Shown: piece by piece, positions 9,261-53,363 of the stretch
How positions within the stretch are numbered: the first letter of the stretch is position 1
Layout: every line of letters begins with the position of its first letter
Assembly: GCA_965262715.1 (NCBI GenBank)
Contig: OZ253553.1
Span: 1,152,001-1,216,000, forward strand
DNA from: Bdellovibrionales bacterium
GTDB taxonomy: Bacteria > Bdellovibrionota > Bdellovibrionia > Bdellovibrionales > JAUICD01
DNA length: 64,000 nucleotides
Direction: 5' to 3'
The notes under the pieces: model-generated
The model's database searches: none
What the model was told of the DNA's origin: nothing
What the model saw: only the letters and a program-made list of their open reading frames with translations
Program-made: the position numbers and the translations under genes

Positions 9261-9544
9261 TATATTTCTTTTTTTATTTCATTAGAAATAATGTCAAATA
9301 TAGGAGCTGTTAAGAAGTTTTTGAATTGCTTTAAGAACTGAATTATATTTTTATTTTTGTCATCAGAAGTCTTTCTCATAAGGCTATCCTGACAATCTCA
9401 TCCTAAAAGTCAATCTAAAGCTTCATAGCATCATCCAAATCCTATCTAATTTGTTCATAACCTGCACTAAGTTCTGAATTTGTCTTTAAAGAAGACTCTT
9501 TAAATTCTCGCATATACGAGAACTTTTATTGCCCAATACGAAAA

Positions 9545-10030
9545 ATGGTGGACGCTGGCCTTCTATGGGCAAAAAACGTACTCAATCCTCAGTTTTCAAT
9601 GAAATCAACTATTTCTATCACTTCTTTACCTATTCCTGAAAGCGTACTCAAACAGAAATATCTCAAAAACTACCTCTCAATAAAAGAAATTGCAAAGGAA
9701 TTTTCGTGCTCAAAAACCAAAATCAGAGACCTACTTTTAAAATACAAAATGCCATTAAGAAAGCCTTCAAAATGCCATCAAAGATATGATAGTCGCACTT
9801 ACGGCAAGAAAAAGATAAATGGTAAAACGATAGATCACAAAAGAGAGTTAAAAACCATTGAAACCATTAAAAAGCTTTATGCTAAAGGTATCAATCCAAA
9901 TACAATAGCTAAGGTATTAAGCACTATGAAAATACCAACTAAACAGCATAAAAAAGAGTGGCATCATCACACAATTATCAATCTTCTTAAAAGAGAAAAT
10001 ATTTATAAACAAGAAAAATCAATAGCTTAG
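9545..10030 (+). CDS. HTH plus serine-recombinase 'Recombinase' DNA-binding domain protein, no catalytic domain
   Basis: LSIKEIAKEFSCSKTKIRDLL HTH; YG...E...I.KLY..G...IA..L...PT....W....I..LL pattern. Confidence 0.75.
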   Translation: MVDAGLLWAKNVLNPQFSMKSTISITSLPIPESVLKQKYLKNYLSIKEIAKEFSCSKTKIRDLLLKYKMPLRKPSKCHQRYDSRTYGKKKINGKTIDHKRELKTIETIKKLYAKGINPNTIAKVLSTMKIPTKQHKKEWHHHTIINLLKRENIYKQEKSIA

Positions 10031-18101: not shown

Positions 18102-18111
18102 TAGGAAGTAT

Positions 18112-20556: not shown

Positions 20557-20612
20557 TTAACTTGAATTTATTGTAACGATTCAAATATATAATTGAACAG
20601 AGAATAGAAAGA

Positions 20613-25974: not shown

Positions 25975-26018
25975 ATAAAAAAACTTATCATATTTTATTA
26001 TGAATGGATCAATAAGTT

Positions 26019-26486
26019 ATGAAGTTCAACACATCTTTTTTACTTATTTTAATTTCGATTACAATTGCTATAATGTTTATATATATTGGATCAAATCGTC
26101 AATTGACTACATTGGAAAATGTATTATTTCAGTTGATTATATTATCTATTGGCTTAATAGGATCATTTCTTTTTGGAAGAGTTAAGTCTAAAGAAATTGA
26201 TAAACCACGTCTAAGATCCGCTTTTCGTAGACTTATTTCTCTTTATCGAAGTCTTTCTCGTATGGCTTTTATTGTTAGTGAAAATCAAGAACGAGGAGGA
26301 CAAGAAGACAAAACAACACTTTTAAAAATTGAATCAATAATTACAGAACAAATATTTGCTGTCGATGATGCAATGTTAGATTGGTATGATATAACACCAG
26401 AAGAAGTTAAAGATTTATATAAGTCTAAAAATTTATTTTTTGATGATACTTTAAGACAAACCAAGAGGGAGTCAGATAGTGAATGA
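26019..26486 (+). CDS. Hypothetical membrane protein
   Basis: Two N-terminal hydrophobic helices. Confidence 0.7.
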   Translation: MKFNTSFLLILISITIAIMFIYIGSNRQLTTLENVLFQLIILSIGLIGSFLFGRVKSKEIDKPRLRSAFRRLISLYRSLSRMAFIVSENQERGGQEDKTTLLKIESIITEQIFAVDDAMLDWYDITPEEVKDLYKSKNLFFDDTLRQTKRESDSE

Positions 26487-26919
26487 CCTTATTCGAGGCA
26501 AGGTTGCTAAAATTCTGAACTCTCGTGAGGTGGCTATAAATATTGGTTCTCATCACGGAGTGAGAGAAGGAATGTTATTTGATATTCTTGACCTTAGTGG
26601 CAAAAATATCATAGACCCTGACACAGAAGAAAACTTAGGTTCAATTGAAAGGCCAAAAGTGAGAGTTCAAGTCAAACATATAAGAGATAATTTTTCTATT
26701 GCCTCAACATTTAAAAAAAATGAGATAAATATTGGAGGTAAAGGAGGTGGCTTTGCCTTGTTATCTAAAGCATTTCTTCCACCAAAATGGGTTACCAAGT
26801 ATGAAACATTAAAAACAGCAGATCAAACATGGGAATCTATTACAGAGGATCAGAGCTATATTAAGATTGGAGACCCCATAATTCAAGTTTTTGAAGACAA
26901 TAAAGAAAAGGTTAAGTGA
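26479..26919 (+). CDS. Hypothetical protein, FlgT C-terminal-like beta domain
   Basis: INIGSHHGVREG..F.I....IIDPDTEENLG pattern. Confidence 0.6.
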   Translation: MNDLIRGKVAKILNSREVAINIGSHHGVREGMLFDILDLSGKNIIDPDTEENLGSIERPKVRVQVKHIRDNFSIASTFKKNEINIGGKGGGFALLSKAFLPPKWVTKYETLKTADQTWESITEDQSYIKIGDPIIQVFEDNKEKVK

Positions 26920-28339: not shown

Positions 28340-31328
28340 AGAAATTGCTTTTGAAAATGTTATTGAACAGCATCTTTTAGAAAAAGGGGGCTATACCAAA
28401 GGTGATCCTAAAACCTTTAATCGTTTAAAAGGACTTGATCCAAGTGTTCTATTTGCTTTTCTAAAAGAAACTCAAGCGGAGCAATTGGCCTACATTCAAA
28501 ACCTTCAAAAGGATAAAACAGAAGATATTATTATTGAATCTTTATGTCAGGCTCTAGATTCAAAGTATGAAGGATGTCTTAAAGTTTTAAGACATGGGTT
28601 TAAATGTTTTGGAAAGCTTTTTAAAGTTGCTTATTTTGCTCCAGCCAGTGGTTTAAATCCAGATATTCAAAAACTTTATGAAAAAAACCAATTAACAGTG
28701 ACAAGACAACTTCAGTATAGCAACAGACATAAAAACTCTCTTGATATGGTCTTAAGCTTAAATGGATTACCAATTGTTACATTAGAGCTTAAAAATCCAA
28801 TAACAGGTCAAACATGGCGAAATGCCATTCATCAGTACAAACAAGATAGAGATTCAAATGAGTTGATTTTTCAATTTAAAAAGAGAACATTAGTTCACTT
28901 TGCTGTGGATACGGATGAAGTCTATATGACAACCAGACTCAATGGAGATAGAACCTTTTTTCTGCCATTTAATTTAGGGAATAATCAAGGAGCAGGAAAC
29001 CCTGAAAATTCAAAAGGCTATAAAACTTCTTACTTATGGGAGGAAATTCTTAATAGAGAAAGCTTATTAGATATACTTGCTAGATTTATCCATCTTGAAG
29101 TAGAGGAGAAAAAATTTCAGAATAGAAAAAATACAGAGGAAACGATGATATTTCCTAGATATCATCAACTTAACTGTGTAAGAAAGCTTATCGATGATGT
29201 ACAAGAAAAGAAAACAGGAACAAACTATCTCATTCAACATTCTGCTGGAAGTGGAAAAAGCAACTCCATTGCATGGTTAGCTCATCGTTTGTCAACTCTC
29301 TATGATAATGCTGATGAAAAAATATTTGATTCTGTAATTGTTATCACTGATCGTTTAGTTTTAGATCAACAACTTCAAAATACAATATATCAATTTGAGC
29401 ATAAACAAGGTGTTGTTAAAAAAGTTGATGAAGATTCAACACAGCTGGCTAAAGCTATTACTTCTTGTGACCCTATTATCATCACAACACTTCAAAAGTT
29501 TCCTTATGCTACAGAGAAAATGGAATATCTATCAAGCAAGAAGTATGCTGTCATTATTGATGAAGCTCATAGTTCACAAGGAGGTGAGTCAGCTACAAGC
29601 CTAAAAGGCCTTTTGTCAGGAACAGTTATAAAAGAGGAAGCAGAAAAACAAGCCAGAGAAGAAGGGCTTCTAGATTATGAGGAAGAAATTATACGTTCTA
29701 TGAAAAAAAGAGGTCAGCAAAAAAATATCAGTTTTTTTGCATTTACTGCAACACCTAAATATAAAACGTTAGAAATTTTTGGCAAATATGGAGAAGATGG
29801 AACTCCTAAATCATTTCATCTATATAGCATGAAGCAAGCTATTGAAGAAGGTTTTATTTTAGATGTTTTGCAATATTATACAACTTATAAGACGTATTAT
29901 CGACTTATTAAATCGATAGAAGATGACCCAGAGGTTGATAAAAGGCGAGCTGCTCGCAGTCTTGCTCGTTTTATGAGTTTACATCCACATAATATCTCTC
30001 AGAAGACAGAAATTATAGTAGAACACTTTATACATTTTACTCGTCATAAAATAGGAGGTAAAGCTAAGGCCATAGTGGTCACTTCCAGCCGTTTACATGC
30101 TGTTCGATATAAGAAGTCTTTTGATGAGTATATCAAAGATAAAAAATATCGAGGAATTAAAACTTTAGTTGCTTTCTCTGGTAGAGTTCCTGATCCTGAT
30201 ATCAAAGAAATTGAATACACTGAAGTCAGTATGAATAAAGGGATTAAAGAAAAAGAACTTCCTGGAAAGTTTGCCACTAATGAATATCAAGTTCTTCTTG
30301 TTGCAGAAAAATATCAAACAGGTTTTGATCAACCTCTCCTACATACAATGTATGTTGATAAAAAGCTCTCTGGAATTCAAGCAGTGCAAACGTTAAGCCG
30401 TTTAAATAGAACTTCTATAGGTAAGGAAGATACATTTGTACTTGATTTTGTAAATAGGCCAGAAGACATTCAGGAAGCATTTCAGCCTTACTATGAAAAA
30501 ACTCTTATCGAGGAAAGAGTCGAGGTAAAACATCTTTATGAGTTGCAATCAAGATTAGATGTTCAGCAAGTTTACTATAGAACCGAAGTGGATGAATTTT
30601 GTAGGATTTTTTATAAACCAAAGAAAAATCAAACATCCTCTGATCATGAAAGAATAAATGTTTGTATTGATCCTGCTGTTATGCGTTTTAATAAATTAGA
30701 TCAAGAAAAACAAGATGAGTTTAGAAAGTTACTTTTGTCTTTTCTTGATAATTATGCCTTTCTATCGCAAATTATCCCATTTCAAGACTCAGATCTTGAA
30801 AAGCGTTATTCTTATATACGTTTTTTACTTAAAAAATTACCTAAAAGAGAATCCGGACCAAATTATTATTTTGATAATGATATTGCACTTAAATATTATA
30901 GACTGCAAAAAATCAGCGAAGGTTCGATTCATCTTGAAGATGGAAAAGGAAGTAAGGTTTCTGGTCATGTTTCTGTGGGAGCAAGCTCTTCAAATGATGA
31001 AAAAATAGAGTTATCACAATTGATAGACATTCTTAATGAACAGTTTGGCACACAGTTTACTCAAGCAGATCAGTTATTCATAGACTCTATAGGAGAGGAA
31101 GCTGTCTCTGACCCAAAGTTAAGACAAGCAGCAAAAGCGAACTCTATGGAAAACTTTGGTTATGTTTTCCGAAAAGCTTTGGAAAAACTATTTATTGATC
31201 GCATGGAACAAAACGAAGATATTACAGCTAAGTTTATGAACGAAAAAGAATTTAAAAAAGTTATAGGAAAAGCTTTACTTGAGAGAGTTTATAAACAAAT
31301 TCACAGTGAGGATACAGACAATAATTAA
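28323..31328 (+). CDS. hsdR: Type I restriction endonuclease subunit
   Basis: ELKN, HSAGSGKS, IDEAH, FTATP, QTGFDQP. Confidence 0.95.
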   Translation: MTTQYKEIAFENVIEQHLLEKGGYTKGDPKTFNRLKGLDPSVLFAFLKETQAEQLAYIQNLQKDKTEDIIIESLCQALDSKYEGCLKVLRHGFKCFGKLFKVAYFAPASGLNPDIQKLYEKNQLTVTRQLQYSNRHKNSLDMVLSLNGLPIVTLELKNPITGQTWRNAIHQYKQDRDSNELIFQFKKRTLVHFAVDTDEVYMTTRLNGDRTFFLPFNLGNNQGAGNPENSKGYKTSYLWEEILNRESLLDILARFIHLEVEEKKFQNRKNTEETMIFPRYHQLNCVRKLIDDVQEKKTGTNYLIQHSAGSGKSNSIAWLAHRLSTLYDNADEKIFDSVIVITDRLVLDQQLQNTIYQFEHKQGVVKKVDEDSTQLAKAITSCDPIIITTLQKFPYATEKMEYLSSKKYAVIIDEAHSSQGGESATSLKGLLSGTVIKEEAEKQAREEGLLDYEEEIIRSMKKRGQQKNISFFAFTATPKYKTLEIFGKYGEDGTPKSFHLYSMKQAIEEGFILDVLQYYTTYKTYYRLIKSIEDDPEVDKRRAARSLARFMSLHPHNISQKTEIIVEHFIHFTRHKIGGKAKAIVVTSSRLHAVRYKKSFDEYIKDKKYRGIKTLVAFSGRVPDPDIKEIEYTEVSMNKGIKEKELPGKFATNEYQVLLVAEKYQTGFDQPLLHTMYVDKKLSGIQAVQTLSRLNRTSIGKEDTFVLDFVNRPEDIQEAFQPYYEKTLIEERVEVKHLYELQSRLDVQQVYYRTEVDEFCRIFYKPKKNQTSSDHERINVCIDPAVMRFNKLDQEKQDEFRKLLLSFLDNYAFLSQIIPFQDSDLEKRYSYIRFLLKKLPKRESGPNYYFDNDIALKYYRLQKISEGSIHLEDGKGSKVSGHVSVGASSSNDEKIELSQLIDILNEQFGTQFTQADQLFIDSIGEEAVSDPKLRQAAKANSMENFGYVFRKALEKLFIDRMEQNEDITAKFMNEKEFKKVIGKALLERVYKQIHSEDTDNN

Positions 31329-34611: not shown

Positions 34612-34774
34612 ACTGTAACTTACGTACATAAGTTACAGTGGTGCACCCTTAAAATCATTGATGTTTTTGGTCATTTTCCCTACCAATGACCATCAATGAA
34701 AAACCCTTTCAATTAACCATATCGGTATTTATTTCAATAACTTAATACTGTAACTTATGTACGTAAGTTACAGT
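34612..34774. repeat. Two 28-bp 11-6-11 palindromic sites in inverted orientation
   Basis: ACTGTAACTTA-CGTACA-TAAGTTACAGT (34612-34639) and its exact reverse complement (34747-34774). Confidence 0.9.
34719..34745 (-). promoter_or_regulatory. Candidate sigma-28 promoter facing pilA
   Basis: TTAA-N15-ACCGATAT versus consensus TAAA-N15-GCCGATAA. Confidence 0.5.
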
Positions 34775-34928
34775 GCTAAGTAGTTGAAATCATTGAAGTA
34801 CTAGACTGTCTAGTCTAGTATTAAGACAACATTTAAGTTGAGAAATTTATAAAGTTGTTGCGAATTGATAAAATGTTTGTATCTAACCAAAACAACTTCT
34901 TATATTTTCATTTTAGCGAAAGAAAAAC

Positions 34929-35097
34929 GCAAGGAAGTTTTCCTTAACATTATGTTAAATAAGAAGAGGTATCTGCCTTACTAAAAATAAATAGATTTTT
35001 GAGACAATGAGTATTTTATGAGAGTATTAGCCGTCATGCTCATTGTCCAAAAATGGCCAGAGGCTCGCCTCGAGAGGCCAGTTTATTTTTAGTGAAA
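34929..35097 (+). ncRNA. Putative structured element, divergent copy A
   Basis: Shared leader; closing stem ACTAAAAATAAAT/GTTTATTTTTAGT; inner GACAATGAGTAT/ATGCTCATTGTC. Confidence 0.5.
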
Positions 35098-35361
35098 GCA
35101 ATTGCAGATTGATAAAACATCTGTCTCTCAACAGAACAACTTCCTCTATTTGTATCTTAATAGAATTAAAATACAACAAAAGATACCTTTAAAATAGCTA
35201 GTATATAGTAGAATAAAGTATTTTATATAATTCTGTCTCCTGAAGCATTGGCGAGAGGTCAATCAGAAGTCTGCCATAACTCTAAATTACTATCTTAGGC
35301 TAAGTTCAAATAGTAGACATGGAAATGGTTTAATTACTTTTGGATCAGCCCATGGACCGGG

Positions 35362-39375: not shown

Positions 39376-39490
39376 TTCAAAAGATCATTGTCCAACCTCT
39401 GGATGAATTAGAAATACAGCTTAAATTTGTCTTCAAAGAAGACCCTTCAATCTCTCGCATGTATGAAGACTTTTATTGTATATCGAGAAA
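39376..39490 (+). pseudogene. C-terminal stump of a large serine recombinase
   Basis: Repeats 36883-36945; continuation matches 9480-9545 and 53078-53132. Confidence 0.7.
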
Positions 39491-39499
39491 GCTAAAAAA

Positions 39500-39745
39500 A
39501 ATATTTCCTTAACATTATGTAAAAAAAGAAGAGTATCTGTCTACTCAAAATAAACAGATGGCAAGGATAAAGTTTCCCTAACATTGTGTTAAGAAATAAG
39601 GATATCCTCCCTACTAAAATGCATTAGGCTTTCTAGGCAGTAAGCTATTTGCCGACAGCGTAAGCCTGTCGGGCTTACTGCCAGAAAGTGACCAGAGGTC
39701 AGATGCATTTTAGGGAAACAGAAGGCTGGTTTATTTTGAGTGAGA
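39500..39745 (+). ncRNA. Two nested copies of the putative structured element
   Basis: Outer stem 39543-39555/39729-39741; inner complete copy ~39561-39718. Confidence 0.55.
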
Positions 39746-40192
39746 TTGGTGGACGCTGGCCTTCTATGGGCAAAAAACGTACTCAAACAGAAATATCTCA
39801 AAAATTACCTCTCAATAAGAGAAATTGCAAAGAAATTTTCGTGCTCAAAAACCAAAATCAGAGACCTGCTTTTAAAATACGAAATCCCATTAAGAAAACC
39901 TTCAAAATACCATCAAGGATATGATAGTCGCACTTATGGTAAGAAAAAGGTGAATGGTAAAACAGTAGATCACAAAAGAGAATTAAAAACCATTGAAACC
40001 ATCAAAGAGCTTTATCTCAAAGATATCAATCCGAATATGATAGCTAAAGTATTAAGCACTATGAAAATACCCACTAAACAGCAAAAAACAAGCTGGCATC
40101 ATCATACAATTATCAATCTTCTTAAAAGAGAAGGTCTTTATAAGCAAGAAAAAACCAACAAGTTAGGAGGGAATAATGGAAACATTTATTAA
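39740..40192 (+). CDS. HTH + recombinase-DNA-binding-domain protein (paralog of 9545..10030)
   Basis: High identity to 9545..10030 with an N-terminal deletion. Confidence 0.7.
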   Translation: MRLVDAGLLWAKNVLKQKYLKNYLSIREIAKKFSCSKTKIRDLLLKYEIPLRKPSKYHQGYDSRTYGKKKVNGKTVDHKRELKTIETIKELYLKDINPNMIAKVLSTMKIPTKQQKTSWHHHTIINLLKREGLYKQEKTNKLGGNNGNIY

Positions 40193-40554: not shown

Positions 40555-41253
40555 TTGGATATGCCTAAAAGACGGGACATTCGTTTTGTCTCTAAAGTTC
40601 CATCTTGTCGGTATATATTGACAAATACCTACATTTTGGAACATTATTATTCTATGGAGAGCCAGAGCCAAATAATCATAGATCTTGCTCATTCCCGTGG
40701 GCTTATCCGTCCTCGAGACCTTACTGAGCGTGGATTGCCTCGTGTTATTCTCACTCGTCTAGTACGTCAAGGGTTACTCATTCGAGTGGGAAGGGGCCTT
40801 TATGCTTTACCCAATAGACCTGTGACAGAAAATATGTCTTTAGCTGAAGTTTCTCGTAAATATCCACAAGGTATAATATGCTTGTTGTCAGCATTACGTG
40901 TACATGAACTAACCACCCAATCCCCGTTTAAAGTTTGGTTAGCTATTCCTAACAAAGCCAGATCTCCAAAAATGGAATATCCACCTCTACATATTGTGCG
41001 TTTTTCTGGAGCAGCTCTCATTGAAGGTATTGATGAACATCAGATTGAGAGTGTTTCTGTACGTATTACCAACATCGCTCGTACAGTAGCTGATTGTTTC
41101 AAGTACAGAAATAAAATTGGCCTTGATGTTGCGCTTGAGGCTTTAGAAGAAGCATGGAATAGTAAACGCACTAATATGGATGAACTTTGGCATTATGCCT
41201 CAGTATGTCGAGTAGCTAATATTATGCGTCCTTACTTAGAGAGTCTAACATGA
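40555..41253 (+). CDS. abiEi: Type IV TA antitoxin AbiEi family (start likely 40654)
   Basis: L.RVGRGLY, CLLSAL..HELTTQ.P, RTVADCFKYRNKIGLDVALEAL. Confidence 0.9.
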   Translation: MDMPKRRDIRFVSKVPSCRYILTNTYILEHYYSMESQSQIIIDLAHSRGLIRPRDLTERGLPRVILTRLVRQGLLIRVGRGLYALPNRPVTENMSLAEVSRKYPQGIICLLSALRVHELTTQSPFKVWLAIPNKARSPKMEYPPLHIVRFSGAALIEGIDEHQIESVSVRITNIARTVADCFKYRNKIGLDVALEALEEAWNSKRTNMDELWHYASVCRVANIMRPYLESLT

Positions 41254-42167
41254 GTGAAAGAAATATAGCTGCTTCAGTAAGGAATCGATTACTCAATCTC
41301 GCAAAAAAAACCAAACAAGACTTTAATTTACTAGTTACTAAGTATTGTATTGAACGCTTGATGTATCGTCTCAGCATTTCTGAATATGCTGAACATTTTT
41401 TGTTAAAAGGAGCTTTACTATTCGACTTATGGTTCGACATTCCTTATCGTTCCACAAGAGACGCAGATTTTCTGGGTCTTGGCTCTTCTGACTTATCAGT
41501 TATCGAAGATATTTTTAAGAAAATCTGTAATCTTAACTCTGAAGATGGAGTGATATTTAAATCTGAAACTGTAAAGGTTAAAGCCATTCGCAAAGAAGCT
41601 AACTATCCAGGGTTGCGAGTCACTTTTCTGGCAATGATTGAAAACATGAAATGTTCAATTCAAGTTGATATAGGTTTTGGAGATATAGTTACACCTAGCC
41701 CCGAGGACATTGAATATCCTACAATTCTGAATGAATTTGCAGCACCTAGATTACGAGCTTATTCATGTTATACTGTAGTTGCAGAAAAACTTGAGGCTCT
41801 AACAAAACTTGGAATAGCTAATAGTCGTATGAAAGACTACTTTGATCTATGGATTCTGTCTCGTCACACAAACTTTGACGGTAATATACTCCGCAACTCT
41901 ATTCATGCAACATTTACACGTCGAAAAACAGAGATACCCAATGAACTACCTTTTGGGTTAACTGAGGCCTTTGCTCAGGATATTCAAAAGCAGACGCAAT
42001 GGTCTGCTTTTTTACAAAAAAACTCTCTTGAATCATTATCTCTAAAAGATATTGTACACTTTCTTTCTGGCTTCTTACAGCCAGTAATCCAGTCAGCGAG
42101 TACAAGGGGCTTATTTGATTTCTTTTGGACAAATGGTGGTCCGTGGTCACCTAAATCATATAATTAA
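41250..42167 (+). CDS. abiEii: AbiEii nucleotidyltransferase toxin
   Basis: LLKGALL, R.TRDAD, AEKLEA, NSRMKDYFD. Confidence 0.9.
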   Translation: MSERNIAASVRNRLLNLAKKTKQDFNLLVTKYCIERLMYRLSISEYAEHFLLKGALLFDLWFDIPYRSTRDADFLGLGSSDLSVIEDIFKKICNLNSEDGVIFKSETVKVKAIRKEANYPGLRVTFLAMIENMKCSIQVDIGFGDIVTPSPEDIEYPTILNEFAAPRLRAYSCYTVVAEKLEALTKLGIANSRMKDYFDLWILSRHTNFDGNILRNSIHATFTRRKTEIPNELPFGLTEAFAQDIQKQTQWSAFLQKNSLESLSLKDIVHFLSGFLQPVIQSASTRGLFDFFWTNGGPWSPKSYN

Positions 42168-42427
42168 ATTGACACAATCAAATTAAATTCTCTAAGATTA
42201 TCTATTTAGTGAACAATTGAAGTATTGTTTGAATAGTTACTGGCTTTAAGTCTTCAATTTTATGAATGAGATGGGTGCAACTTTGTTTGATTGAATCTCT
42301 GTCTATTAAAGTAAATGCCGTTTCATTCTACTTCAAACTCTGAGCAAATTAAAAGCACAACTTATGATTCACTCTTTTGAAAAATAACACTCGTTTAAAG
42401 CAAGAAAAAGGTTCGAATTGGTGTCAC

Positions 42428-42621
42428 TGGTGGACGCTACACCTCAATATGTAGAAAACGTGCTCAATCCACAGTTTTCAATGAAATCAACTATTTCCAT
42501 CGCATCCTCATCTATCTCTGAAAGCGTACTCAAACAAAAATATCTTAAAAATCACCTCTCAATAAGAGAAATTGCTAAGAAGTTTTCGTTCTCAAAAACC
42601 AAAGTCAGAAGCCTACTTTAA
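42428..42621 (+). pseudogene. Truncated HTH/recombinase-domain module gene
   Basis: Matches the N-terminal part of the 4383 and 9545 copies. Confidence 0.75.
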
Positions 42622-42736
42622 TAAAAGTTTCCCAATTTCTTCAGTGCTATATAGCTCAGTTGAGTTTTTTCCGATTTATTTATAAGTCAAACCACAATAA
42701 GTTTATCTTTCATCAAAAAAGCACTTTAGAGAGAAA

Positions 42737-43420
42737 ATGGTTCTAAAAAATTTGATTATATCTTTCTGTATGCTCCTTTTAATAGGAAGTTTTCATAGGC
42801 AAATGTTTGCCAAAGCAACAAACCAGCCTATAGTCCTTCAATTTCAGGTTTCTCATACAAGAAATACTAATCAAACATCTCTGATCTTTAAAAACAAGAC
42901 GGTAGAATTTGTCACAAATGTGTCTCAAATATCCAGTCAAATGCCATCATCTAGTAAAAATAACTCCATCCGTCTAGGTCATTTTCATACTCCTTTAAAT
43001 GACCGATTTGAACTTCTAAAAAAGAAGATACAAGTCTATCAAAGGCTTTTAGAAAAAAAAGGAAAAGGCATTGATTTGAGCAAGGCAATGAAAGCTACAG
43101 GTATTAATGATTTTGATATGGACCCTCATGCTCCCATCATTCGTTTGGGCATGAATGGACAAAGTATTGAAGTGAGAGAATCTAATCCTTATTTTAAATC
43201 TCTACACAGAATATTACTTGATGCTCAAAAACATAAATGGGATTGCCTGTCTTGTGCTGAGTACAAAAAGGATGGAAAAAATATCGTCAGGACTTTTAAA
43301 AAGAAAGGCCGTCAAACTGCATCAGCAGTTTTTTCTAAATCTCATTTACAATGTCTCTATTTAAACAAACGACGTATAGAATGCCTAGATCAGCAATTTG
43401 GCTTATTTGAATTGGAGTAA
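42737..43420 (+). CDS. Hypothetical secreted protein
   Basis: Signal peptide; 227 aa. Confidence 0.7.
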   Translation: MVLKNLIISFCMLLLIGSFHRQMFAKATNQPIVLQFQVSHTRNTNQTSLIFKNKTVEFVTNVSQISSQMPSSSKNNSIRLGHFHTPLNDRFELLKKKIQVYQRLLEKKGKGIDLSKAMKATGINDFDMDPHAPIIRLGMNGQSIEVRESNPYFKSLHRILLDAQKHKWDCLSCAEYKKDGKNIVRTFKKKGRQTASAVFSKSHLQCLYLNKRRIECLDQQFGLFELE

Positions 43421-43438
43421 ATATAAAGGATTTCATTT

Positions 43439-45433
43439 ATGAAAGGTATTTTATATACAACTTGGATGATCATCCTGCTCAAGGGATCTGTCTGTTTTGG
43501 CCAAGCTATTCAAAGAGATGTATCTAATTGGCTAGTTAGTATTAAGTTAGAACCTAAACCTCCTCCTTGTTATAAAGTCAATTGCCCTGGTTATCCATAT
43601 TCTGATGGAGTTATCACATTTCAAAATGGGAAAGTAGATATTTCTGCCTTTGTGGAACGTGCAGAAACTCTGCTTCAACAGTCTGATTATCAAAATAATC
43701 TATTTTTTGAAAATTTACAACATGCTTTTAAAATATCTGTGAAAGATTTATGTCATGTTGAAACATATTCTGAAAATCAAATTCAATCTTGTGAAACTGA
43801 GTTCGAAAGATCTTTGGAGCAAGCTGAAATGCAACTCCGAGAATCACAAGTTGATCGTATTTTATTACCAAACACTTATGATCCTGTTGGACATCTTTCA
43901 GATCAAGTTGTTAGTAAGGCACATCAAAAACTCGCTTTAGATTGTTTAACTGCTTGTAGTGATACGTCTATTTCGTCCTTGCTTAGTCATGGAAACCAAG
44001 ATCAATATCAAGAAGCCGTTCGCAGGCTTTCTGAAAAAGGCCCTGATTGCCTTAAAAATGCCCTAGCTGCTTTAGGTCGACAAATTCAAACAACCAATGA
44101 AAGCAACCTTTTGCCTAACAGTTGTGAAAATGAAAGAGGCCAGCAAAGAAGGGTATGTAACAGATGGAAACATAATGAACAAATTATTATAGGAAGACTC
44201 TCAAATCTTACTGATTTGATCCTCTCTCAAACATCTTCACAAGCATTGCAATCTTTAGATACTTGTTTGGAAAATCAAACTTCTTTTTCTGCTTTAGAAG
44301 AATTTTTAAAGGACTTAGATGATGAGATGCTTTGTCGTCCTTATCAAAAAGGGGAAGAAAGATATATTTCTGTATGGCCAGGTCATTATAAACTCAAAAG
44401 AGAGGGTGATGGAAGTTATACAGTTTCTCTTGCTATCAGCTTTGCTCCGGCAGACGATTATGATAATAACAGTCATGTCCCAAAGAATCAGGTTAATTCC
44501 TATTATAAGGAAAAAACAAGAAAATGTTTAAACGAAGCCAGTTCAAAAATACAAGGTCCCAATGGAGAGCAGTTAAATATTGTGATTGAAGATGTTCATC
44601 AGGATTCTTGCCTTCCAGAAAAGCAAATTTTCATCACAGCTAAAAACGGATACACAGATACAAGCTATTATGCAGCAGATATTATTTGTCCAACCATAGC
44701 CCATGAAATTTTGCATGACCTAGGCCTTTTTGATAAATACAAAGAATCAAGCAGAGGATATTTCGTTGATGTAGAAACAGGTATGGTTTTAGAAACAGAA
44801 GATATGAAAGATTATAATATTGAAGATAGAAAAAACTTTGTGTTTCAACCCAAATTTAATTGCCGTGTGACACAAGAAGAAAGCTTCATGGCTATTCATT
44901 TAACGAGATGGAATAGATCTTTCCAAGTTTCTGGAAGAAGAGAGGATCATAATGCTTATTCGTTTTCATTGTTAGATCCTGCAGAATTTAATGCCATTTT
45001 GTATGGTAACTGTACAAAAAGAGAAGACGTTCGCATTTTAAGAGAGTGTTCCAGATTAGCATACACCACAAGTTATCTTAATAGAAGTAGTCGTGAGGAT
45101 AACTGTCCTCCTTTGAAAACAGAATGTGAACGTCAAAATGTTCAAGGAAAATCTCTAGCACAAATTCAAGCAGAAGAAAGAATTTTATCCAGACGAATAA
45201 ACTCACTGAACTCTCATATTAATAATTATAGTAGCAAATTGATGGCCTTAGAGCAAATGGATAGACAAACAAGAGTGCATGGCCCAGACTTTGAATGCAG
45301 TTACCGTAATGTTGACATACATGAATGTAAGGAATTTCTAGAATGGGGTATAAAGCAAAATACAAGAAAAAAAGACGGCTTAATACAAAGGCAAGAACGA
45401 CTATTACAGATCATGCCAAGTTCTAACCCTTAA
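43439..45433 (+). CDS. Secreted Cys-rich protein with HExxH zinc-metallopeptidase motif
   Basis: Signal peptide; TIAHEILHDLGLFDKY. Confidence 0.75.
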   Translation: MKGILYTTWMIILLKGSVCFGQAIQRDVSNWLVSIKLEPKPPPCYKVNCPGYPYSDGVITFQNGKVDISAFVERAETLLQQSDYQNNLFFENLQHAFKISVKDLCHVETYSENQIQSCETEFERSLEQAEMQLRESQVDRILLPNTYDPVGHLSDQVVSKAHQKLALDCLTACSDTSISSLLSHGNQDQYQEAVRRLSEKGPDCLKNALAALGRQIQTTNESNLLPNSCENERGQQRRVCNRWKHNEQIIIGRLSNLTDLILSQTSSQALQSLDTCLENQTSFSALEEFLKDLDDEMLCRPYQKGEERYISVWPGHYKLKREGDGSYTVSLAISFAPADDYDNNSHVPKNQVNSYYKEKTRKCLNEASSKIQGPNGEQLNIVIEDVHQDSCLPEKQIFITAKNGYTDTSYYAADIICPTIAHEILHDLGLFDKYKESSRGYFVDVETGMVLETEDMKDYNIEDRKNFVFQPKFNCRVTQEESFMAIHLTRWNRSFQVSGRREDHNAYSFSLLDPAEFNAILYGNCTKREDVRILRECSRLAYTTSYLNRSSREDNCPPLKTECERQNVQGKSLAQIQAEERILSRRINSLNSHINNYSSKLMALEQMDRQTRVHGPDFECSYRNVDIHECKEFLEWGIKQNTRKKDGLIQRQERLLQIMPSSNP

Positions 45434-45595
45434 ACATTTCTGAAAAAATTTTCTAGATTTCACCAGAAGTGTGATATTTTATCGTAAGCCTTTATCTGCT
45501 GAGAAGTTTATTTCAGAGGATAAAAATTTCGGTATAAATTTCAGTATAAAAGGAAAGAAAAAAGTCGCCAGAGGCGAGATGCATTTTAGTGAGAT

Positions 45596-45882
45596 TGGCG
45601 GAGTAGCTGAAGTATTGGATATCTCCACTTATGACTCCAGCTATGTATCTTTATTTATTACACATTTTTTTAATACTCCAGAAAAAAAACTCTAAAATTT
45701 TACGGAAACTTTATGTTGATCTTAAGCTTTCCACTCGTGATATTGAAAGACTCACCCAATTTTCATGGTCAAAAAGCTCTATTTTAAGGGCTTTAAGAGA
45801 GCACAAAATATTTACGCACGAATTTTTAAAAAAAGAGGAAGTAATAAAAATATTCATTAAAGTTATTATAGATATATCATGA
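45596..45882 (+). pseudogene. Divergent HTH remnant following a junction core
   Basis: LRKLYVDLKLSTRDIERLT..WSKSSILRALREHKI resembles the module HTH. Confidence 0.45.
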
Positions 45883-46076
45883 ACCAACTAAAAATAAAGA
45901 ACCAGAGGACAAAAATTGTAAGTTAAGTTATAAAAATTGTGAGTAAAGATGCCCTTTAAACCCTTATATTTTGAATTTTCAATCCTTAAAATCAATTTTA
46001 AACGTACTTTATGACATAAATGCAATTGGCATAAATCTTGAAACAATAAAAATGATTTTTACAAAAACAAGAGGAA

Positions 46077-47076
46077 ATGAAAGTTATGAAACTTTTTAGG
46101 AATACTTTGGTTTTTAGTTTATTTATTTATAGCTTTGCTTTACCTGCTTTTGCTCAAGAGGCAATAGATTTGGAATTAGCCAAACTGATGGAAGCACAAA
46201 ATGTCGGTGAATCAAACATAAGAACAAGAGAATTACATGTTTTACCCATGTCCAATGATTTGGTGTATCTTGGAGACTTTTTCAATGAAATGTATTCATT
46301 ATATAATGGTAGAGGGCGACCCCCATATGATTATGATGTGAACAATGATCGTATTATCACTTATCGTATTTATGATGTTTCTTTCTTAGCAAATGGACAG
46401 CAGAAGTCTTTGATACTTGGCATTGAAGAGAATAAGGAACATTCTTCTGCAGAAATACTTCAAAAAGTCAGAGCTATTTTGGGCAAAATGCCGGAGAGAT
46501 GGTTAAGTAAAGTGCATTTTATTAGGATAAAAAGGGAAACTAATCCTAACAGAAAACATGGTCAGTTTAAATTAACTGGAGGGGCTCCTTTTGCTTCTTC
46601 TCGTGGTTGTAATGCATGCAGCTTTTGGCAACAAATGTTTCCTCAAGTATCAAAGGGTTAGCCATACAGGTAGAAGTAGAATGGAATTTCATCATTACAA
46701 CACAATTCAAGTCAATTTCGATTATTCTCAAAGGGAATCTGCTGAGTATAGAGATCTTGTTACTAAAACAATGCAACATGAATTGGGACATTTGATTGCA
46801 AGACACTCTGAGTATGGGTATTCTAGCCAAGAGTGGTACGATGCTATCGTAAAAGATGGTACATTTACTTATGGAAATATTAGAACTTCTGAAGATGATA
46901 GACATTATGATATTGAGCAAGACTTTGCTGAAACAGTGGCTATTTACTTAACAACATATAGAGGATTTTACAATGACCCATACATCAACACGCTAGAGCC
47001 TGCAACAGACTATCGCCATCGATTTGCTATTTTGGATAGAATTATGGGCATAGATGAAATGAAGAATGCCTTATAA
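46077..47076 (+). pseudogene. Frameshifted secreted zinc-metallopeptidase-like protein
   Basis: Signal-peptide ORF 46077..46661 overlaps ORF 46591..47076 with HELGH...EQDFAE. Confidence 0.6.
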
Positions 47077-47094
47077 ACGCCCATTAAAAAACTA

Positions 47095-47245
47095 GTCGAG
47101 GGGAATAGGGGAATTTCACCCCTAAACCCTCACAGAATCGTGCGTGACAGTCTCCCGTCACATGGCTCTTATCATTAAAACCCTTGCCATGACAACACAA
47201 GCTTCCGCAAGTCTCTTTAGCCATTTGCAAAACCTTCTAAACCTT
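47095..47245 (-). mobile_element. Group II intron 3' remnant (domains V and VI plus end of the RT gene)
   Basis: GAGCCATGTGACGGGAGACTGTCACGCACGATTC-TGTGAGGG..GGGGTGAAATTCCCC..CCCTCGAC. Confidence 0.85.
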
Positions 47246-47249
47246 CTTC

Positions 47250-47382
47250 TCATTCAAATTAAATAATTTACTATAATCTTTCATGATAATTAAAACTTTG
47301 TTGAAATATTAATCTTAAAATGATACAACTTTTAAAAATATCTATAAACACAAAAGAGTTGCACTTGCGATTTGAAGTTACG
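47250..47382 (+). mobile_element. IS30 right-end fragment
   Basis: Matches 163-293 and the reverse complement of 37102-37233. Confidence 0.85.
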
Positions 47383-47419
47383 AGATCATTTATCCTAAAT
47401 AAACTTAATGAGTTAACTA

Positions 47420-48913
47420 ATGATAGAAACCATTACTTTTGCACAAAATGAACATTTAATACAAAAACCTGAAACTATAAAGAGAGAATTAGGGCAGTAT
47501 TTTACAAATCAGACAATAGCTAATTATATGGCTGAAATGATTCATCCAATAAATGCACCTATTGTTCGTATCTTAGATGCTGGAGCGGGGACAGGAATAC
47601 TCACCATTTTTTCTGCTATACACTGTTTGAAACTGGGACACAAACATATTCATGCTGTTTTATATGAAATTGATGAAGATATTTTGTCAAATCTCACAAC
47701 GAATATGAAGTACCTAACTTATATATTTAAAAAACGGGGAGGCAAATTTACTTTCAAAATTTACAATAAAGATTTTGTACTAGCTAGACCAGATAAAACT
47801 GAAAAGGCTTTCCACATATCTTCAATTAATCCTCCTTATTTTAAATATAACTCTAAAACTTCCCCTTACGCGAAGGCCACTTCTGATCTATATAAAGGAA
47901 ACCCTAACATTTACGCTTCATTTATGGCTATAGTCTCTTCCTGTCTAGCCCCTAATGGTCAAATGATTGCCATTGTTCCTCGTAGCTTTACTAATGGCCT
48001 CTATTTCAAAGGTTTTCGTCAATATATGAATCAGGTAATGAACCTAAATAAAATTCATATTTTCAGAGCAAGAAATCAGGTGTTTAAAGAGTTATCTGTA
48101 TTACAGGAAAATATCATTTGTTGTTATACCAAATGTAACCAGCAATCACATATTGAAATTTGTGCTTCTACTGGATACAAAGACTTGAAACAAATAGAAA
48201 AAAACCGATATTCAGAAAAGCAAATCATTGATAGATCCACAAAACACGAAATAATTAGGATTCCTGAAACTTCAAAAGACGCAAAAATATTAAAAACTGT
48301 GGAAAAATGGCCAACTAGCTTTCAAGAAAATGGCTATTTTATATCAACAGGACCAATCGTTGAATATCGTGCTAAAAAATATATAACCAACTCAAAGGAA
48401 AAAAAACATTCTATACCTCTATTAAAAATGCATAATATTAAAGCTTTTCAAACTAAATGGACTGGGGATAATAAAAAGGATGCTTATTTCAAATTGATTG
48501 ATGGTTATGAAAAACATATCTCTATCAATCAATTATATGTAATTTTAAAACGGTTCAGTTCAAAAGATGAAAAGCGTCGTCTTATCGCTGCAGTCCATAA
48601 CCCACAAATTATAAAAAGCAACCTACTAGCTATGGAAAATCATCTTAATTACATAGGAAGAAGAGATGGGCCATTAAGTTTATCCGAAGCTTATGGTCTT
48701 GCCACTCTTTTTAATTCTACACTTATGGATAAATATTTTCGATGTCTATCTGGTAATACACAAGTGAATGCTACAGAGATTAAATTATTAAAAATGCCAA
48801 CCAGAAAAACTATTTATCAAATAGGAGAGTTATTTCTAAAAAATATGGAAACTACTCAGAATAAAATTGACAGCATTATAGATTTCTATTTAGAAGAAAC
48901 AATAATCACATGA
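47420..48913 (+). CDS. Type II N6-adenine DNA methyltransferase (BsuBI/PstI-like)
   Basis: [32 protein letters not shown]. Confidence 0.9.
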
Positions 48914-49863
48914 GTAAAAAAAGAAAGTTGATTCAAGCTCAAGAAATACTTAAAGCATTAGAATTACCTAAACAGCAATACAATAATCGATCTGCTTGGG
49001 TGTTTCTAGCGTTAGCTCATATACGTCCAAAAGATAAATGGCAAAATGCAAAAGCTCCTTTATTACCAACTGTGGATATTATGCAATTCATCCGTGAACA
49101 CTATGACCAAGACTACAAACCAAATACAAGAGAAACTATCCGGCGTCAAACACTTCATCAATTTGAACAAGCGAGAATAGTTGATAGAAACCGTGACAAC
49201 CCTTCTAGAGCGACTAACAGCAAGAATAATAATTATTCGCTAAACCAAGCTGTTATAGAAGTGCTAAAGAGATATCCAAACGATAATTGGAAACAAAAAA
49301 TTAAGGAATATAAGGAAGATTTGCCAAAACTCCAAAAGATATATAAGCGCATTTTAAACAAGACAAAAATTCCAGTAAGGCTTCCTAGTGGCAAGAAAAT
49401 AAAATTATCACCAGGGAAACATAATCAATTACATAAAGACATTGTAGATGAGTTTTGCTCACGCTTCATTGGAAGTTCAGGAATAATACTTTATATAGGT
49501 GATACAGCTAAAAGTCGAAATGAAGGCGGTAAATTTATGGTATTAGAAAAAAAACAATTAAAAGCTCTAGGTATTCCTACAATATTACATGAGAAACTTT
49601 CTGATCTAATAGTATATGATAAAAAAAGAAAAAGGATATTCCTTATTGAAGCTGTTACCAGCCATGGACCAATATCACCAAAAAGATATATTGAAATGGA
49701 AAAAATATTAAAAAACTGTAAGATAAAAAAAATATATGTTTCTGCCTTCCCAGACATCAATGAATTCCGCCGACACATTATGGATATAGCTTGGGAGACA
49801 GAAGTATGGATAGCAGATAATCCAGATCATATGATCCATTTTAATGGAGATCATTTTTTATGA
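48910..49863 (+). CDS. BsuBI/PstI-family restriction endonuclease
   Basis: [48 protein letters not shown]. Confidence 0.9.
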
Positions 49864-49867
49864 ATAT

Positions 49868-49917
49868 AAAAATATCTATAAACACAAAAGGAGTTGCACT
49901 TGCAATTTGAAGTTACG
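49868..49917 (+). mobile_element. IS30 right-end fragment
   Basis: AAAAATATCTATAAACACAAAAGGAGTTGCACTTGCAATTTGAAGTTACG. Confidence 0.8.
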
Positions 49918-50250
49918 TATAAATATTAGAGGTTTATAAAAAAATAACTTACAAGTTTTTAAAAAGTTTCTATTTGTGAACTTATGGTTGTGTAAGACGG
50001 TTTTGAATGAGGCTTTATAAGTATTTTTTTTTATTTATGCAACAACGTCTATCAAGACCCATAAGTTCAACTAGGGATTTAGCAAAACCTTCTGTAGATC
50101 GCAATTTTAAACCAAATACATCTCTCTAACAAATTAAGGCCACTTTATAAAAACTATCTGTAGATAAGTAATAGGTATTAAAAAAAATTTTCTTCACATT
50201 CAGTTTTAAAATATAGAGAACTGAATTATTGACTTAACTTTTGCAAGGCA

Positions 50251-51456
50251 TCAATCAGACAACTCATCTCCAAAACGACTTATATAATCTTGAAATGTAA
50301 AGCCCTTTGCTTTTTGAAGATTGCCATCCTCGCAAAAATAATAAATATCTGGAAGGTTGATCCCATTAAACATGTGAGCTTTAACAAAAGCATAGCTCCC
50401 AATCTCTTTAAAGATGACCTTAGAACCTATTTTCAAAGGCTCCTTAAAACTCTGAATTCCAAAATGATCAAGTGAATATAAACAATTACAACCTGCAAGG
50501 GCATATACATGATCTCCATTTTCTTTTAAAAATTCAGGCATAATCTGAAATTCTAAAACTTCAGGTAAATGATTCACAGTAGTATCTAACAAAGCCACAT
50601 CTTGATTATCCCTCTTGAAAAGATCAATAACAGAAGTAACTAAATAACCTACTTGTTTTACTAAAGAGGCACCTGGCTCCATAAATATCTCTTCAAAGTT
50701 ATCATATTTATTTCTTATGTAACTTATCAATTTTGGAAAAATATCAATATTGTCGGACTGATCTAAATAATACCCTCCTCCTAAATTAAGCCATTTAAAT
50801 TTTTTTAAATGATCTTTTAATATAGATTCAACTTTTTTAAAAGTTTCCTCTAATTGAGAAAGATTAGAGTTCATATGAGAATTATGAATGTGAATACCTG
50901 TGATTTTCCTAGAAAGTTCAGGATGATTATCTAAAAAGTATAAAAATTTATTTAATGGAACCCCTAATTTTGGAGGCATGTTATCAGAACCATAATCATA
51001 GTTGAGGAATACCAACTCTGAGTCTAAGCGCATCCCATACTCAACATGAGGTAAAAGCTTGTCTTGAAAAGATGTTAACTGCTCAAGTGTATTGAAGCTC
51101 ATAAAATTAATATATTTATGCAAATTATTCCATTCTCTTTCTCTAATAGCAGGACTAACATATAATATGTCTTTCTTCATATTTGCTATCCCATGACGAG
51201 GCAAATCAGAGATCTGAGTTTCAAAGAGAGAGCTTACAGAAAACCCATCTATAAAAGGAATGAGGTCTCTAAGTATTGTTAAATTGGATGCTGCCTTAAC
51301 AGCATATAGAAGCTTACAGTTTGCTCGATCCATCAACTGTCTATGAACTAATGCTTTCTTCCTGAGAAGAACTCTATCAAAAACAAAAAATGGAGTAGGT
51401 AGTCCCTGTAATGGTTTATGATGAGAACCAATAAGAAAAGAGTCAAACATCCACAA
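50251..51456 (-). CDS. PLP-dependent decarboxylase, carboxynorspermidine decarboxylase-like
   Basis: TPFFVFD, LYAVKA, SSLFE, KLG, LNLGGG, MEPG, AGCNCL..D, FNGINLP. Confidence 0.8.
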   Translation of the reverse strand: MWMFDSFLIGSHHKPLQGLPTPFFVFDRVLLRKKALVHRQLMDRANCKLLYAVKAASNLTILRDLIPFIDGFSVSSLFETQISDLPRHGIANMKKDILYVSPAIREREWNNLHKYINFMSFNTLEQLTSFQDKLLPHVEYGMRLDSELVFLNYDYGSDNMPPKLGVPLNKFLYFLDNHPELSRKITGIHIHNSHMNSNLSQLEETFKKVESILKDHLKKFKWLNLGGGYYLDQSDNIDIFPKLISYIRNKYDNFEEIFMEPGASLVKQVGYLVTSVIDLFKRDNQDVALLDTTVNHLPEVLEFQIMPEFLKENGDHVYALAGCNCLYSLDHFGIQSFKEPLKIGSKVIFKEIGSYAFVKAHMFNGINLPDIYYFCEDGNLQKAKGFTFQDYISRFGDELSD

Positions 51457-51612
51457 CCCTAAACATTAGATTTCAAATTATTCTTTATTTAATTATATAT
51501 TTTCCAATATTTTTGTAAAAGATACTTTGAAATCATGTTTCTTCGCGTTATTGTCAATAAGAGATTTCTAAATCATTAAACAGTTAAAATGCTATATAAA
51601 ACTATAATTTGT

Positions 51613-51810
51613 TCATTTAACTGAAATGTCAATTTTACTTTGTGCTGCTTTTAGATAGATATCAAGAGAATGATCCACAGCATCTACAATAATTTTTAAA
51701 TAATCATCCTTTGACTTGCCAAGCTGTGCCTTTTCTAAAGAATGGAGATAGGCAAGCCTATCTACTTTAAGGATAATAGCTAATGGATATCCCGTCATTA
51801 ATAAAATCAT
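51613..51810 (-). pseudogene. C-terminal fragment of a Fic-family protein
   Basis: ILLMTGYPLAII..DRLAYLHSLEKAQ; the catalytic motif is missing. Confidence 0.6.
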
Positions 51811-51921
51811 AAAGTGAAAGATTTACAAGGCACAGGGGTTGCCTATTGCCTATGAAAGATGCCTGACATAATTCTCTAATCTTTTATATACATATTCTTT
51901 AAATCTTTATGCAACAAGACC
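51810..51921 (+). mobile_element. IS903-like end fragment
   Basis: TAAATCTTTATGCAACAAGACC matches the TIR of the 1060-1205 element. Confidence 0.6.
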
Positions 51922-51929
51922 ATATTGTA

Positions 51930-52927
51930 TTAGTTCTTTTCTTTTGATTGTGAACTTAAACTTTCTAGTTCCTTTATATCTGCTTGATCAGCCTTAATAG
52001 CTTCAAACATCTTTCTTTTTTGATCAAATTCTTCATATCGAGATTCTGCAAGTTTTTTTGCCACCTCTGCTTCAATCTTACCTGAATGGGTAAGCAATTC
52101 CTGTTCATTAAATTCTAAAAATGTATTAAGTTTTTCTTCCCATTGATCCATAGTTATTGTTTGACGATTTCTTGCTTGAAGTTCAGCATAGTCAAGGTAC
52201 ATGGTCACAATGTGATTGAGTTTTTCTACTTCCTTATGATCAAGATAGTTTTTAGAAATAGCTACATCAGACTTGCGAGAAATGCTTCCCTTCCAAGAAG
52301 TAAGTCCCATGTTAGGTTTTTCAGGATCACAGCGATTTTCAATAATTTCTGCATCTGTCTTGCCTGTAATAGCCCAAAGCATTTTATTTTGAACTTTTTT
52401 AAAGAAAAGTTGGGCTTTTTCACTGTCTTTGTCATAGTCAATGGCTGTGGTGTATATGTCCTTAATCTTTTGATAAAATCGCTTCTCTGATGCCCTAATA
52501 TCACGGATGCGAGCAAGCCACTCATCAAAATAATCCCATTTGTCGGCTTGTTTCAATCGTTCATCGTTCATCACAAAGCCTTTAACAAGGTATTCTTTTA
52601 AAGTGGTTGTGGCCCATTGACGAAATTGAGTGCCTCGAGGTGACCTGACCCGATAACCCACAGCTAAAATAGCATCAAGGCTATAGAAAAAAGTCTTGTA
52701 ATTTTTACCATCTAAGGCAGTTGTTAAGGATTCCTTAACAACTGAATCTTGAGATAACTCCCCATCTTCAAAAATATTTTTTAAGTGCATGCTGATATTA
52801 GGCTTTGTAGCATTAAAAAGCTCTGCCATCTCTTTTTGAGTCAACCAGACTGTGCCATCAAAGGCATGTAGTTGAATTTCGACCTTCTCATCTTGTGTTC
52901 TTAGAGGATGATCTCTCCCTTATTCAT
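51930..52927 (-). pseudogene. rhuM: RhuM-family DNA-binding protein with 5' frameshift
   Basis: WLTQKEMAELF, VGYRVRS.RGTQFRQWAT, RIRDIRASEKRFY; apparent 1-bp deletion near 52902. Confidence 0.8.
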
Positions 52928-53132
52928 ATTCACACCTTCATCTTTTCATACAAACTTCTATTTTTTTTATTTCTTCAAGGTATTCATGCATTTTAAGATT
53001 TTATGATTTTTAACTTAGGTTTTAGCAAAAAAAGAAATTTTTAAATACTATTTTTTGAATATTTAAATATTGTGAAAAGAAGACCCTTCAAGTTCTCGCA
53101 TGTATGAGGACTTTTATTGCACATTGTGAAAA

Positions 53133-53287
53133 AAGATAAATTTTCCCTAACATCATGTTAAAAAACGAAGCATATCTTCCCTACTAAAATGTATCTTCTT
53201 TCTAGGTAGTCAGCATTTTATTGAAGGCGTGAGCCTTCAGGCTGACTGCCAGAAAGTCGCCAGAGGCGAGATGCATTTTAGTGAAAA
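53133..53287 (+). ncRNA. Putative structured element, copy B, abutting the tRNA 3' end
   Basis: Stems ACTAAAATGTATCT/AGATGCATTTTAGT, GGTAGTCAGC/GCTGACTGCC, TGAAGGC-GTGA-GCCTTCA, TCGCC-AGA-GGCGA. Confidence 0.6.

Positions 53288-53363
<76 letters not shown>

Follow-up and report, generated by a model that had tools for sequence, protein, structure and literature searches.

The structured element at positions 53142-53289 of the window, that is, of the whole 64-kb stretch of DNA analysed here, is with high confidence one copy of a dispersed mobile repeat, of which the 2.94-Mb genome containing the window (G000) holds 450 non-overlapping copies. We propose, with a probability of roughly 0.4, that it is a non-coding selfish repeat whose folded + strand, probably as RNA, is copied 3′-end first by a reverse transcriptase (RT) supplied from elsewhere. 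The repeat is dispersed, is gained or lost between relatives, maintains its fold, exchanges helices as modules, and joins its targets through a fixed 3′ end and imprecise junctions. Small folded repeats are a known kind in bacteria, and how most of them move is still open; this family offers diverged copies by the hundred, paralogous sites without the element and scars of the type described below, which make the choice between RNA and DNA testable. If the RNA route is true, this would be a kind of non-coding retroelement not found described for bacteria in the literature searched, and the same searches, which covered papers open without subscription, supplements excepted, returned no description of this element. 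The reach of the results is limited by the host, an uncultured lineage, and by the finding of the family in one genus.

Within the window, copies were located at all four sites given for them in a preliminary description of this DNA, and every stem quoted there was found at its place; in the nested pair at 39500-39745, the P1 strands of the outer copy pair around the inner one. The features are as follows:

53142..53289, + strand: full copy, with the leader motif from 53142 and a short A-rich tail
53183-53196/53269-53282, + strand: P1 closing stem of the 53142 copy
53206-53214/53241-53249, + strand: P2 long arm of the 53142 copy, mid-helix
53257-53269, + strand: P3 short hairpin of the 53142 copy
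53288..53363, - strand: tRNA-Ala(TGC), its CCA end adjoining the element 3′ end on the opposite strand
39573..39721, + strand: inner full copy of the nested pair
39504..39558, + strand: 5′ part of the outer copy, with the P1 5′ strand at 39543-39555
39722..39742, + strand: 3′ part of the outer copy, with the P1 3′ strand at 39729-39741, adjoining an att/tRNA-end remnant at 39747
34939..35100, + strand: full copy of the 162-nt class, with a 14-nt insert in P3
34858..34915, + strand: left unit of a ~58-nt direct repeat, now decayed, that lies on either side of the 34939 element
35102..35159, + strand: right unit of this decayed ~58-nt direct repeat, beginning right after the 3′ tail of the 34939 element
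45561..45594, + strand: 3′-only fragment, followed by an att/tRNA-end remnant
9488..9585, + strand: empty allele, island-end sequence joined straight to an att remnant without the element
39435..39490, + strand: island-end sequence, common to 9488-9543 and 53076-53131; filled-site flank
53076..53131, + strand: island-end sequence at the tRNA; filled-site flank
39740..40192, + strand: serine-recombinase C-terminal remnant (PF07508), a neighbour outside the element

The three full copies score 121-154 bits with the covariance model, and the fragment at 45561-45594 is identical to 53253-53286 at 33 of 34 positions. A contig from run X2, which belongs to a study other than that of run X1, spans 50089-53278 with 0 differing letters, and mis-assembly of the 53142 copy is therefore unlikely. 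Joints in the run contigs were considered as evidence of excision and discarded, as they link paralogous copies and are uninformative in this respect. An Rfam scan of the window recovered only tRNA-Ala and a group II intron end, and the element had no match at gathering or E-value level, in agreement with the earlier view that it belongs to no known family; the best sub-threshold Rfam match on the copies reached 21.5 bits against a cut-off of 43.

The copy number derives from 534 raw matches of an iterated profile, which amount to 2.1% of the genome, with 0 matches in the reversed-genome control; removal of opposite-strand overlaps leaves the 450 copies, comprising 309 full, 93 5′-only, 42 3′-only and 6 internal ones, to which 40 short 3′ motifs can be added. 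The repeat unit measures 148 nt, or 162-164 nt in a longer class, and mean identity between copies is 70%. Both strands are used (242 copies +, 208 -), and 499 of the 534 raw matches touch no ORF according to a crude ORF caller. The 226 intergenic loci are sense (75), antisense (43), convergent (51), divergent (47) or mixed (10), and 34 same-strand clusters contain at least three copies. The share of copies on the leading strand (106/178) equals that of genes (965/1654), indicating no separate replication bias, and such a bias of the element was dismissed as accounted for by that of the genes. Copies interrupt Avd-like genes, a CRISPR-like array and other copies. The 5′-only class is partly a product of such nesting: 34 of its 93 members stop at model positions 107-109, most of them followed by a nested copy, and the outer halves of nested pairs make up many of these copies. 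The CRISPR-like array (G000:C1:482099-483062), presumably I-F, has a 28-nt repeat and spacers of ~32 nt, lies beside a Cas1 match and carries a ~155-nt element in its last spacer position; two related sites, at 490461 and 476744 of this contig, share that layout. A second repeat of ~190 nt often precedes the element throughout the genome, for instance at C1:1645830-1646018.

The window itself is a stack of defence islands at tRNA-Ala. Family searches detected dense defence genes at 13988-31328 and 40555-52844, namely a ThiF-family protein, an AAA ATPase with UvrD helicase, type I restriction-modification, an AbiEi/AbiEii pair, a BsuBI/PstI system and a RhuM-family protein. Serine-recombinase tail remnants start at att-like junctions (4383-4842, 9545-10030, 39740-40192 and 42427-42618), an inverted-repeat att-like site lies at 12619-12700, and the genome contains five more pieces related to the group II intron 3′ end remnant at 47093-47206. 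Upstream of the 34939 copy, at 34612-34664 and 34747-34799, are two palindromes of 28 nt separated by 135 nt.

Three of the four window sites adjoin att or tRNA-end remnants, and the first reading of the element was that of an RNA, or of an attC-like folded substrate, dedicated to the recombinase of the islands. The scatter of copies over the whole genome refutes this idea as a general explanation, and we regard it as extremely improbable. The location at recombination junctions proved to be a local accident of the window: the att/tRNA-3′ motif ends only 6 of the 450 copies, 3 of them in this window, a copy lies within 400 nt of just 1 of the 10 recombinase-tail pieces in the genome, and tRNA ends attract islands and repeat alike. 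Moreover, the same island-end sequence is empty at 9488-9585, an att allele, and filled at 39435 and 53076. The element had also been placed downstream of the recombinase, whereas the recombinase remnant beside a copy lies downstream of that copy, the 53142 copy has a divergent ORF of the RhuM family on its left, and a Pfam scan of 51 window ORFs identified recombinases as C-terminal remnants only. An attC-like role is contradicted by the mixed orientations given above; the array of integron attC sites, with one orientation and one site per cassette ORF, was not found, and tyrosine recombinases number two per genome. Scatter independent of att sites, which the preliminary description had named as evidence against its own reading, was indeed observed, in a family that is not a known Rfam or REP one.

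The range of the element is narrow. Of 151 genomes of the order, the covariance model matches three, G000, G001 and G004, and leader motifs number 307 in G000, 763 in G001, 9 in G004 and 0 in both G002 and G003; each of 400 further genomes of the phylum yielded 0-3 occurrences of the leader pattern, as its control did. The G004 genome is filed under another genus and bears its copies on three contigs (C1, C4 and C11; L264-L268), in which syntenic proteins are mostly 80-99% identical to those of G000. Judging from this similarity, these contigs are probably mis-binned, and the range is therefore read as one genus. A Bdellovibrionales MAG that gave 113 of 118 pattern loci was not counted as a further genome. 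At two sites the element is present in congener-like contigs and missing from G000, and it turns over at ~90% identity between relatives. Leader-pattern matches in metagenomes (11), viruses (2) and other taxa (5), together with a weak locus in genome G021, were rejected as copies (at most 28 bits), and phage and plasmid records contained no match to the element. One congener-like contig carries a tandem array of ~31-nt units (L265:5200-5650) that is absent at the matching G000 site.

The 53133-53287 sequence folds with a stem that closes the structure, a long arm containing bulges and a hairpin of five pairs (z -8.15 on the + strand and -5.54 on the - strand). The junction of the element has 3, 0 and 0 unpaired bases. 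Hammerhead ribozymes and retrozymes have a conserved unpaired catalytic core at their junction; this identity was discarded given those 3, 0 and 0 bases and the lack of an Rfam match. In an alignment of 51 of the 118 representatives, 95.5% of cells are paired and 30 of 42 pairs changed on both sides (23.2 in shuffled and at most 10 in slid alignments), with a covariation of 0.47 compared with 0.19 shuffled and at most 0.085 slid. The pairing kept under sequence change and the three-way junction of the preliminary description are thereby borne out, in a constrained fold that modestly favours the + strand.

Since relatedness between copies could inflate covariation, linkage was also tested. Across 118 copies, the two strands of one helix displayed a normalised mutual information (MI) of 0.62-0.81, even for the P1 strands ~80 nt apart, and different helices gave 0-0.43; adjacent segments reached only 0.13-0.26 on the 3′ side, and pairs on the 5′ side up to 0.43. 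Linkage thus follows base pairing and not distance, copies trading helices as modules with both strands together. The arm at one orthologous site is identical at 31 of 46 positions (67%) compared with 175 of 195 (90%) in the rest of the copy, and the arm of the relative occurs exactly twice in G000. Within-helix linkage, the 97 helix combinations among 118 copies and this arm swap together indicate that helices are exchanged as modules, mismatched products being rare. Template-switch correction of palindromes could create covariation without selection; it would not be expected to keep fixed bulges. The mosaic of helix modules is also a caution, as a repeat with many copies can covary strongly without this pointing to a functional RNA gene.

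Strand-specific features were partly as first described. On the + strand, G-U pairs outnumber A-C pairs (27 vs 9 positions, p=0.004; 144 vs 70 cells), though not absolutely, and GNRA apical loops, although lacking in the 34939 copy, are present in 73 of 118 representatives, with GNYA loops in a further 17. G-U excess and GNRA loops pick the + strand; they do not separate RNA from single-stranded DNA (ssDNA), whose fold is as strong (z -8.19), and the + strand is the stabler one in only 68 of 118 copies. The TAACA..TGTTA leader had been described as a hairpin; it displays no covariation and has a perfect partner in 40 of 118 representatives, and is therefore better regarded as a sequence motif. 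As the leader is kept in every full copy, an RNA of the element would have to include it. A sigma-70 promoter role was rejected, no clear -35 box standing out upstream of the leader in a comparison made without a shuffle control. The leader was also compared by eye with the dif arm and LexA box motifs, and discarded as either because of unfit spacing.

An empty paralogous site was available for 34 of the 235 blocks having both ends; three rows were left out (two CRISPR-array matches and one misaligned window row). Of the remaining 31 pairs, 11 carry a duplication (1-91 nt) and 20 a deletion (1-79 nt), so that the target change spans -91 to +79 nt with no fixed-length duplication; as these pairs are paralogues that partly share ancestors, they reveal a pattern and not a count of events. 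Insertions start with an A-rich 5′ linker of 3-55 nt, and the 3′ end is fixed, its tail mostly carrying 0-19 extra nt. One 5′ junction recurs with 3′ deletions of 1, 23, 23 and 59 nt. Among 109 isolated copies, 10 lie between long direct repeats, two of these being CRISPR repeats; shuffled pairs gave 0. The 24 nt past the tail recur upstream in 51 of 237 cases, compared with 17 for a control probe, and remnants of right ends occur just before the leader in 24 of 183 flanks (2.9 when shuffled); in the Bdellovibrionales MAG loci the same test gave 6 of 108 compared with 1.2, which equals the shuffle maximum. In arrays of the form (X-element)n, spacer X precedes the first copy in 8 of 9 tested and follows the last copy, near-full, in only 2. 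The element 3′ end adjoins 6 of 35 tRNA/tmRNA genes, four doubtful tRNA calls being left out, where 0.34 would be expected, and 26 of 2302 ORFs. No target tetramer common to the insertions was identified in flank logos or empty-site pairs, and a general rule of a hairpin after the 3′ end was rejected as weak (6% vs 2.7%). Four tandem tRNA-like units with an unusual anticodon call lie directly upstream of tRNA-Trp (G000:C1:2198524-2198863).

These scars fit neither a transposase with fixed duplications nor a Y1 enzyme, and their raggedness suggests that the element is probably selfish and copied off one folded strand, which may be RNA. That a non-autonomous repeat passes through a folded single-stranded + intermediate is, in our opinion, probable; that this intermediate is RNA handled by an RT is put forward more tentatively. 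A free DNA end, situated at a fork, within a resident copy or where a tRNA ends, would prime on the 3′ tail, and copying would then run to the A-rich 5′ end. Host repair would rejoin the product at a position that varies, so that target sequence is deleted or duplicated, and template jumps would yield head-to-tail and nested composites as well as helix mosaics. Only correctly folded copies would be copied again, so that helices stay paired. The part of PMC2881922 drawn on here lists duplications, deletions, extra nucleotides and template jumps as products of target-primed reverse transcription, and by analogy the fixed 3′ end, loose 5′ end and extra bases of our junctions suggest scars of this type. 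One-ended ssDNA transfer could leave similar scars, and later deletions could mimic ragged insertion, the pairs not being alleles and several having a common ancestor. The excess of G-U over A-C and the GNRA loops favour a + strand RNA; G-T pairs and GNNA loops suit ssDNA too. Searches of G000 and G001 found no mobiliser. In G000, RT matches are two group II-like, one an open ORF of 465 aa, and one retron-like, whereas G001 (90% complete, one contig) has none, despite more leader motifs than G000. The retron-like RT lies near the tRNA-Asp copy and was set aside as mover, being a single neighbour only; Rpn nucleases and Cas1 were set aside as they are present also in G003, which lacks the element. 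The Rpn-like PD-(D/E)xK family accounts for 47 ORFs or fragments in G000.

The absence of an RT match from G001 would suit a folded ssDNA intermediate, which needs no RT. According to this rather unlikely alternative, an HUH-type or rolling-circle enzyme nicks at the 3′ tail and transfers one end, the other being settled by replication or repair. One fixed and one variable end, co-moved upstream flanks and (X-element)n arrays fit one-ended transfer, the DNA fold is equally strong, and similar tandem and nested forms appear among the REPIN clusters treated in the portion of PMC3116915 consulted. A suitable enzyme, however, is hard to point to: G001 has no Y1 transposase, G000 has one of IS200 type (PF01797), and none of the 20 genes flanked by copies on both sides appears nuclease-like by eye, except an IS1634 transposase. 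Neither a common target tetramer nor a replication bias beyond that of the genes speaks for this route. That transposase raises the question of whether the element is a MITE moved or rearranged by the IS1634 family, for which long variable direct repeats are described in the excerpt of PMC2266710 available to us. Family matches number 42 in G000, 12 in G001 and 3 in G004, all three on an element-bearing contig, with none in G002 or G003, and the IS1634 direct repeats here measure 49-331 bp. The family therefore tracks the element, although a common distribution within one genus amounts to a single observation. We hold this explanation to be very improbable, as IS1634 termini differ from the element ends, two thirds of the empty-site pairs have deletions, and covariation ties the right end to P1 instead of the left end. 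G000 contains ~40 IS1634-family copies of several subfamilies, for example at C1:132321-133973.

That no mobiliser was found would agree with an RNA or DNA structure useful to the host, such as a terminator, a stabiliser or a protein-binding site, which ordinary recombination and gene conversion would spread and homogenise in the absence of its own mobiliser. Between co-oriented genes, sense copies outnumber antisense ones (p=0.004), some orthologous sites have kept their copy although its arm was exchanged, and 21 of 74 neighbour genes are common to another genome. Nonetheless, all orientations occur, copies interrupt genes, the array and one another, the family, found in one genus only, turns over at ~90% identity, and the polarity of the 3′-tail junctions would not be expected from homologous recombination; on balance this account is improbable.

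Among known systems, bcr1 and REPINs are the nearest in manner of working, the element being a non-autonomous repeat with a fold. In the extract of PMC3184786 on which we rely, bcr1 of the Bacillus cereus group is ~155 nt long, non-coding and lineage-restricted, with positions not conserved between relatives. The element is likewise ~155 nt long with a branched fold kept by compensatory changes; bcr1, in the same extract, is a cruciform with 5-bp direct repeats in each case and has been shown to be transcribed, whereas the element has an asymmetric three-way junction, a sequence leader, swapped helix modules and no fixed duplication. NEMIS-like MITEs, as far as this extract presents them, are also small, non-coding, folded and presumably moved in trans, but the element lacks the fixed-length target duplication of MITEs. 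Its end-to-end similarity is weak (~9 of 13 positions), with outermost left bases that vary in G000, and its ends match none of the IS families inspected (IS1634, IS30, IS5, IS256 and IS3-type); rve and IS110 had no match in G001. It shares with IS1549/IS1634 duplications of tens to hundreds of bases and an abundance of the IS1634 family in G000, yet its ends differ, deletions outnumber duplications and it has no transposase ORF. With REP, REPIN and BIME sequences, to the extent covered in the cited portion of PMC3116915, it has in common hundreds of extragenic copies, tandem clusters that include flanks, and insertion into or beside copies; a REPIN is an inverted doublet of short REPs, in contrast to an asymmetric unit of 148 nt, and neither G000 nor G001 revealed a RAYT-like Y1 gene with copies on its flanks. 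The fixed 3′ end, variable duplications and deletions, extra nucleotides, head-to-tail jumps and co-moved flanks resemble non-LTR elements as portrayed in the cited part of PMC2881922.

Contrary to non-LTR elements and SINEs, the repeat is bacterial, has no poly(A) tail, and 5′ truncation, usual in retroelements, is not dominant, 5′-only copies exceeding 3′-only ones. The comparison with SINEs draws on their general properties: the junction pattern of a fixed 3′ end, variable target change and extra nucleotides was found, as judged from paralogues, and a partner RT in every carrier was not (3 RT matches in G000, 0 in G001), nor was one sharing the 3′ end of the element, which is known here from DNA alone. 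New here are the swapping of helices as paired modules, the junction pattern, the abutment on tRNA/tmRNA 3′ ends and the enrichment of Avd-like genes beside copies.

In G000, 12 of 19 Avd-like genes lie within 400 nt of a copy, compared with 362 of 2304 genes (p=4e-6), and leaving out the five interrupted ones the proportion is 7 of 14 (p=0.003). Apart from these PF05635 genes, no recurrent neighbour was found in both G000 and G001; their assignment rests on matches to PF05635, TIGR02436 and PDB 2GSC, and not on a single-sequence model (pLDDT 57). The section of PMC10053308 that we cite likens PF05635 to the DGR Avd protein. The interrupting copies belong to one element lineage, and an expansion of Avd-like genes is also seen in genomes or contigs in which no element was found; these genes may be a target or a fellow traveller of the element. 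A more specific and quite unlikely version of the RNA route is a bacterial SINE, in which a three-way-junction RNA would borrow an RT to enter tRNA ends and its own copies, switch templates between helices and use the Avd-like protein as RNA chaperone; if true, it would provide a function for the 23S-rRNA-intervening-sequence protein family. In 5 of the 31 genomes compared, Avd-like four-helix-bundle genes reach 11-19 copies; a hairpin spans their start site, and repeats of short units border them on either side (L285, L283, L289 and L284).
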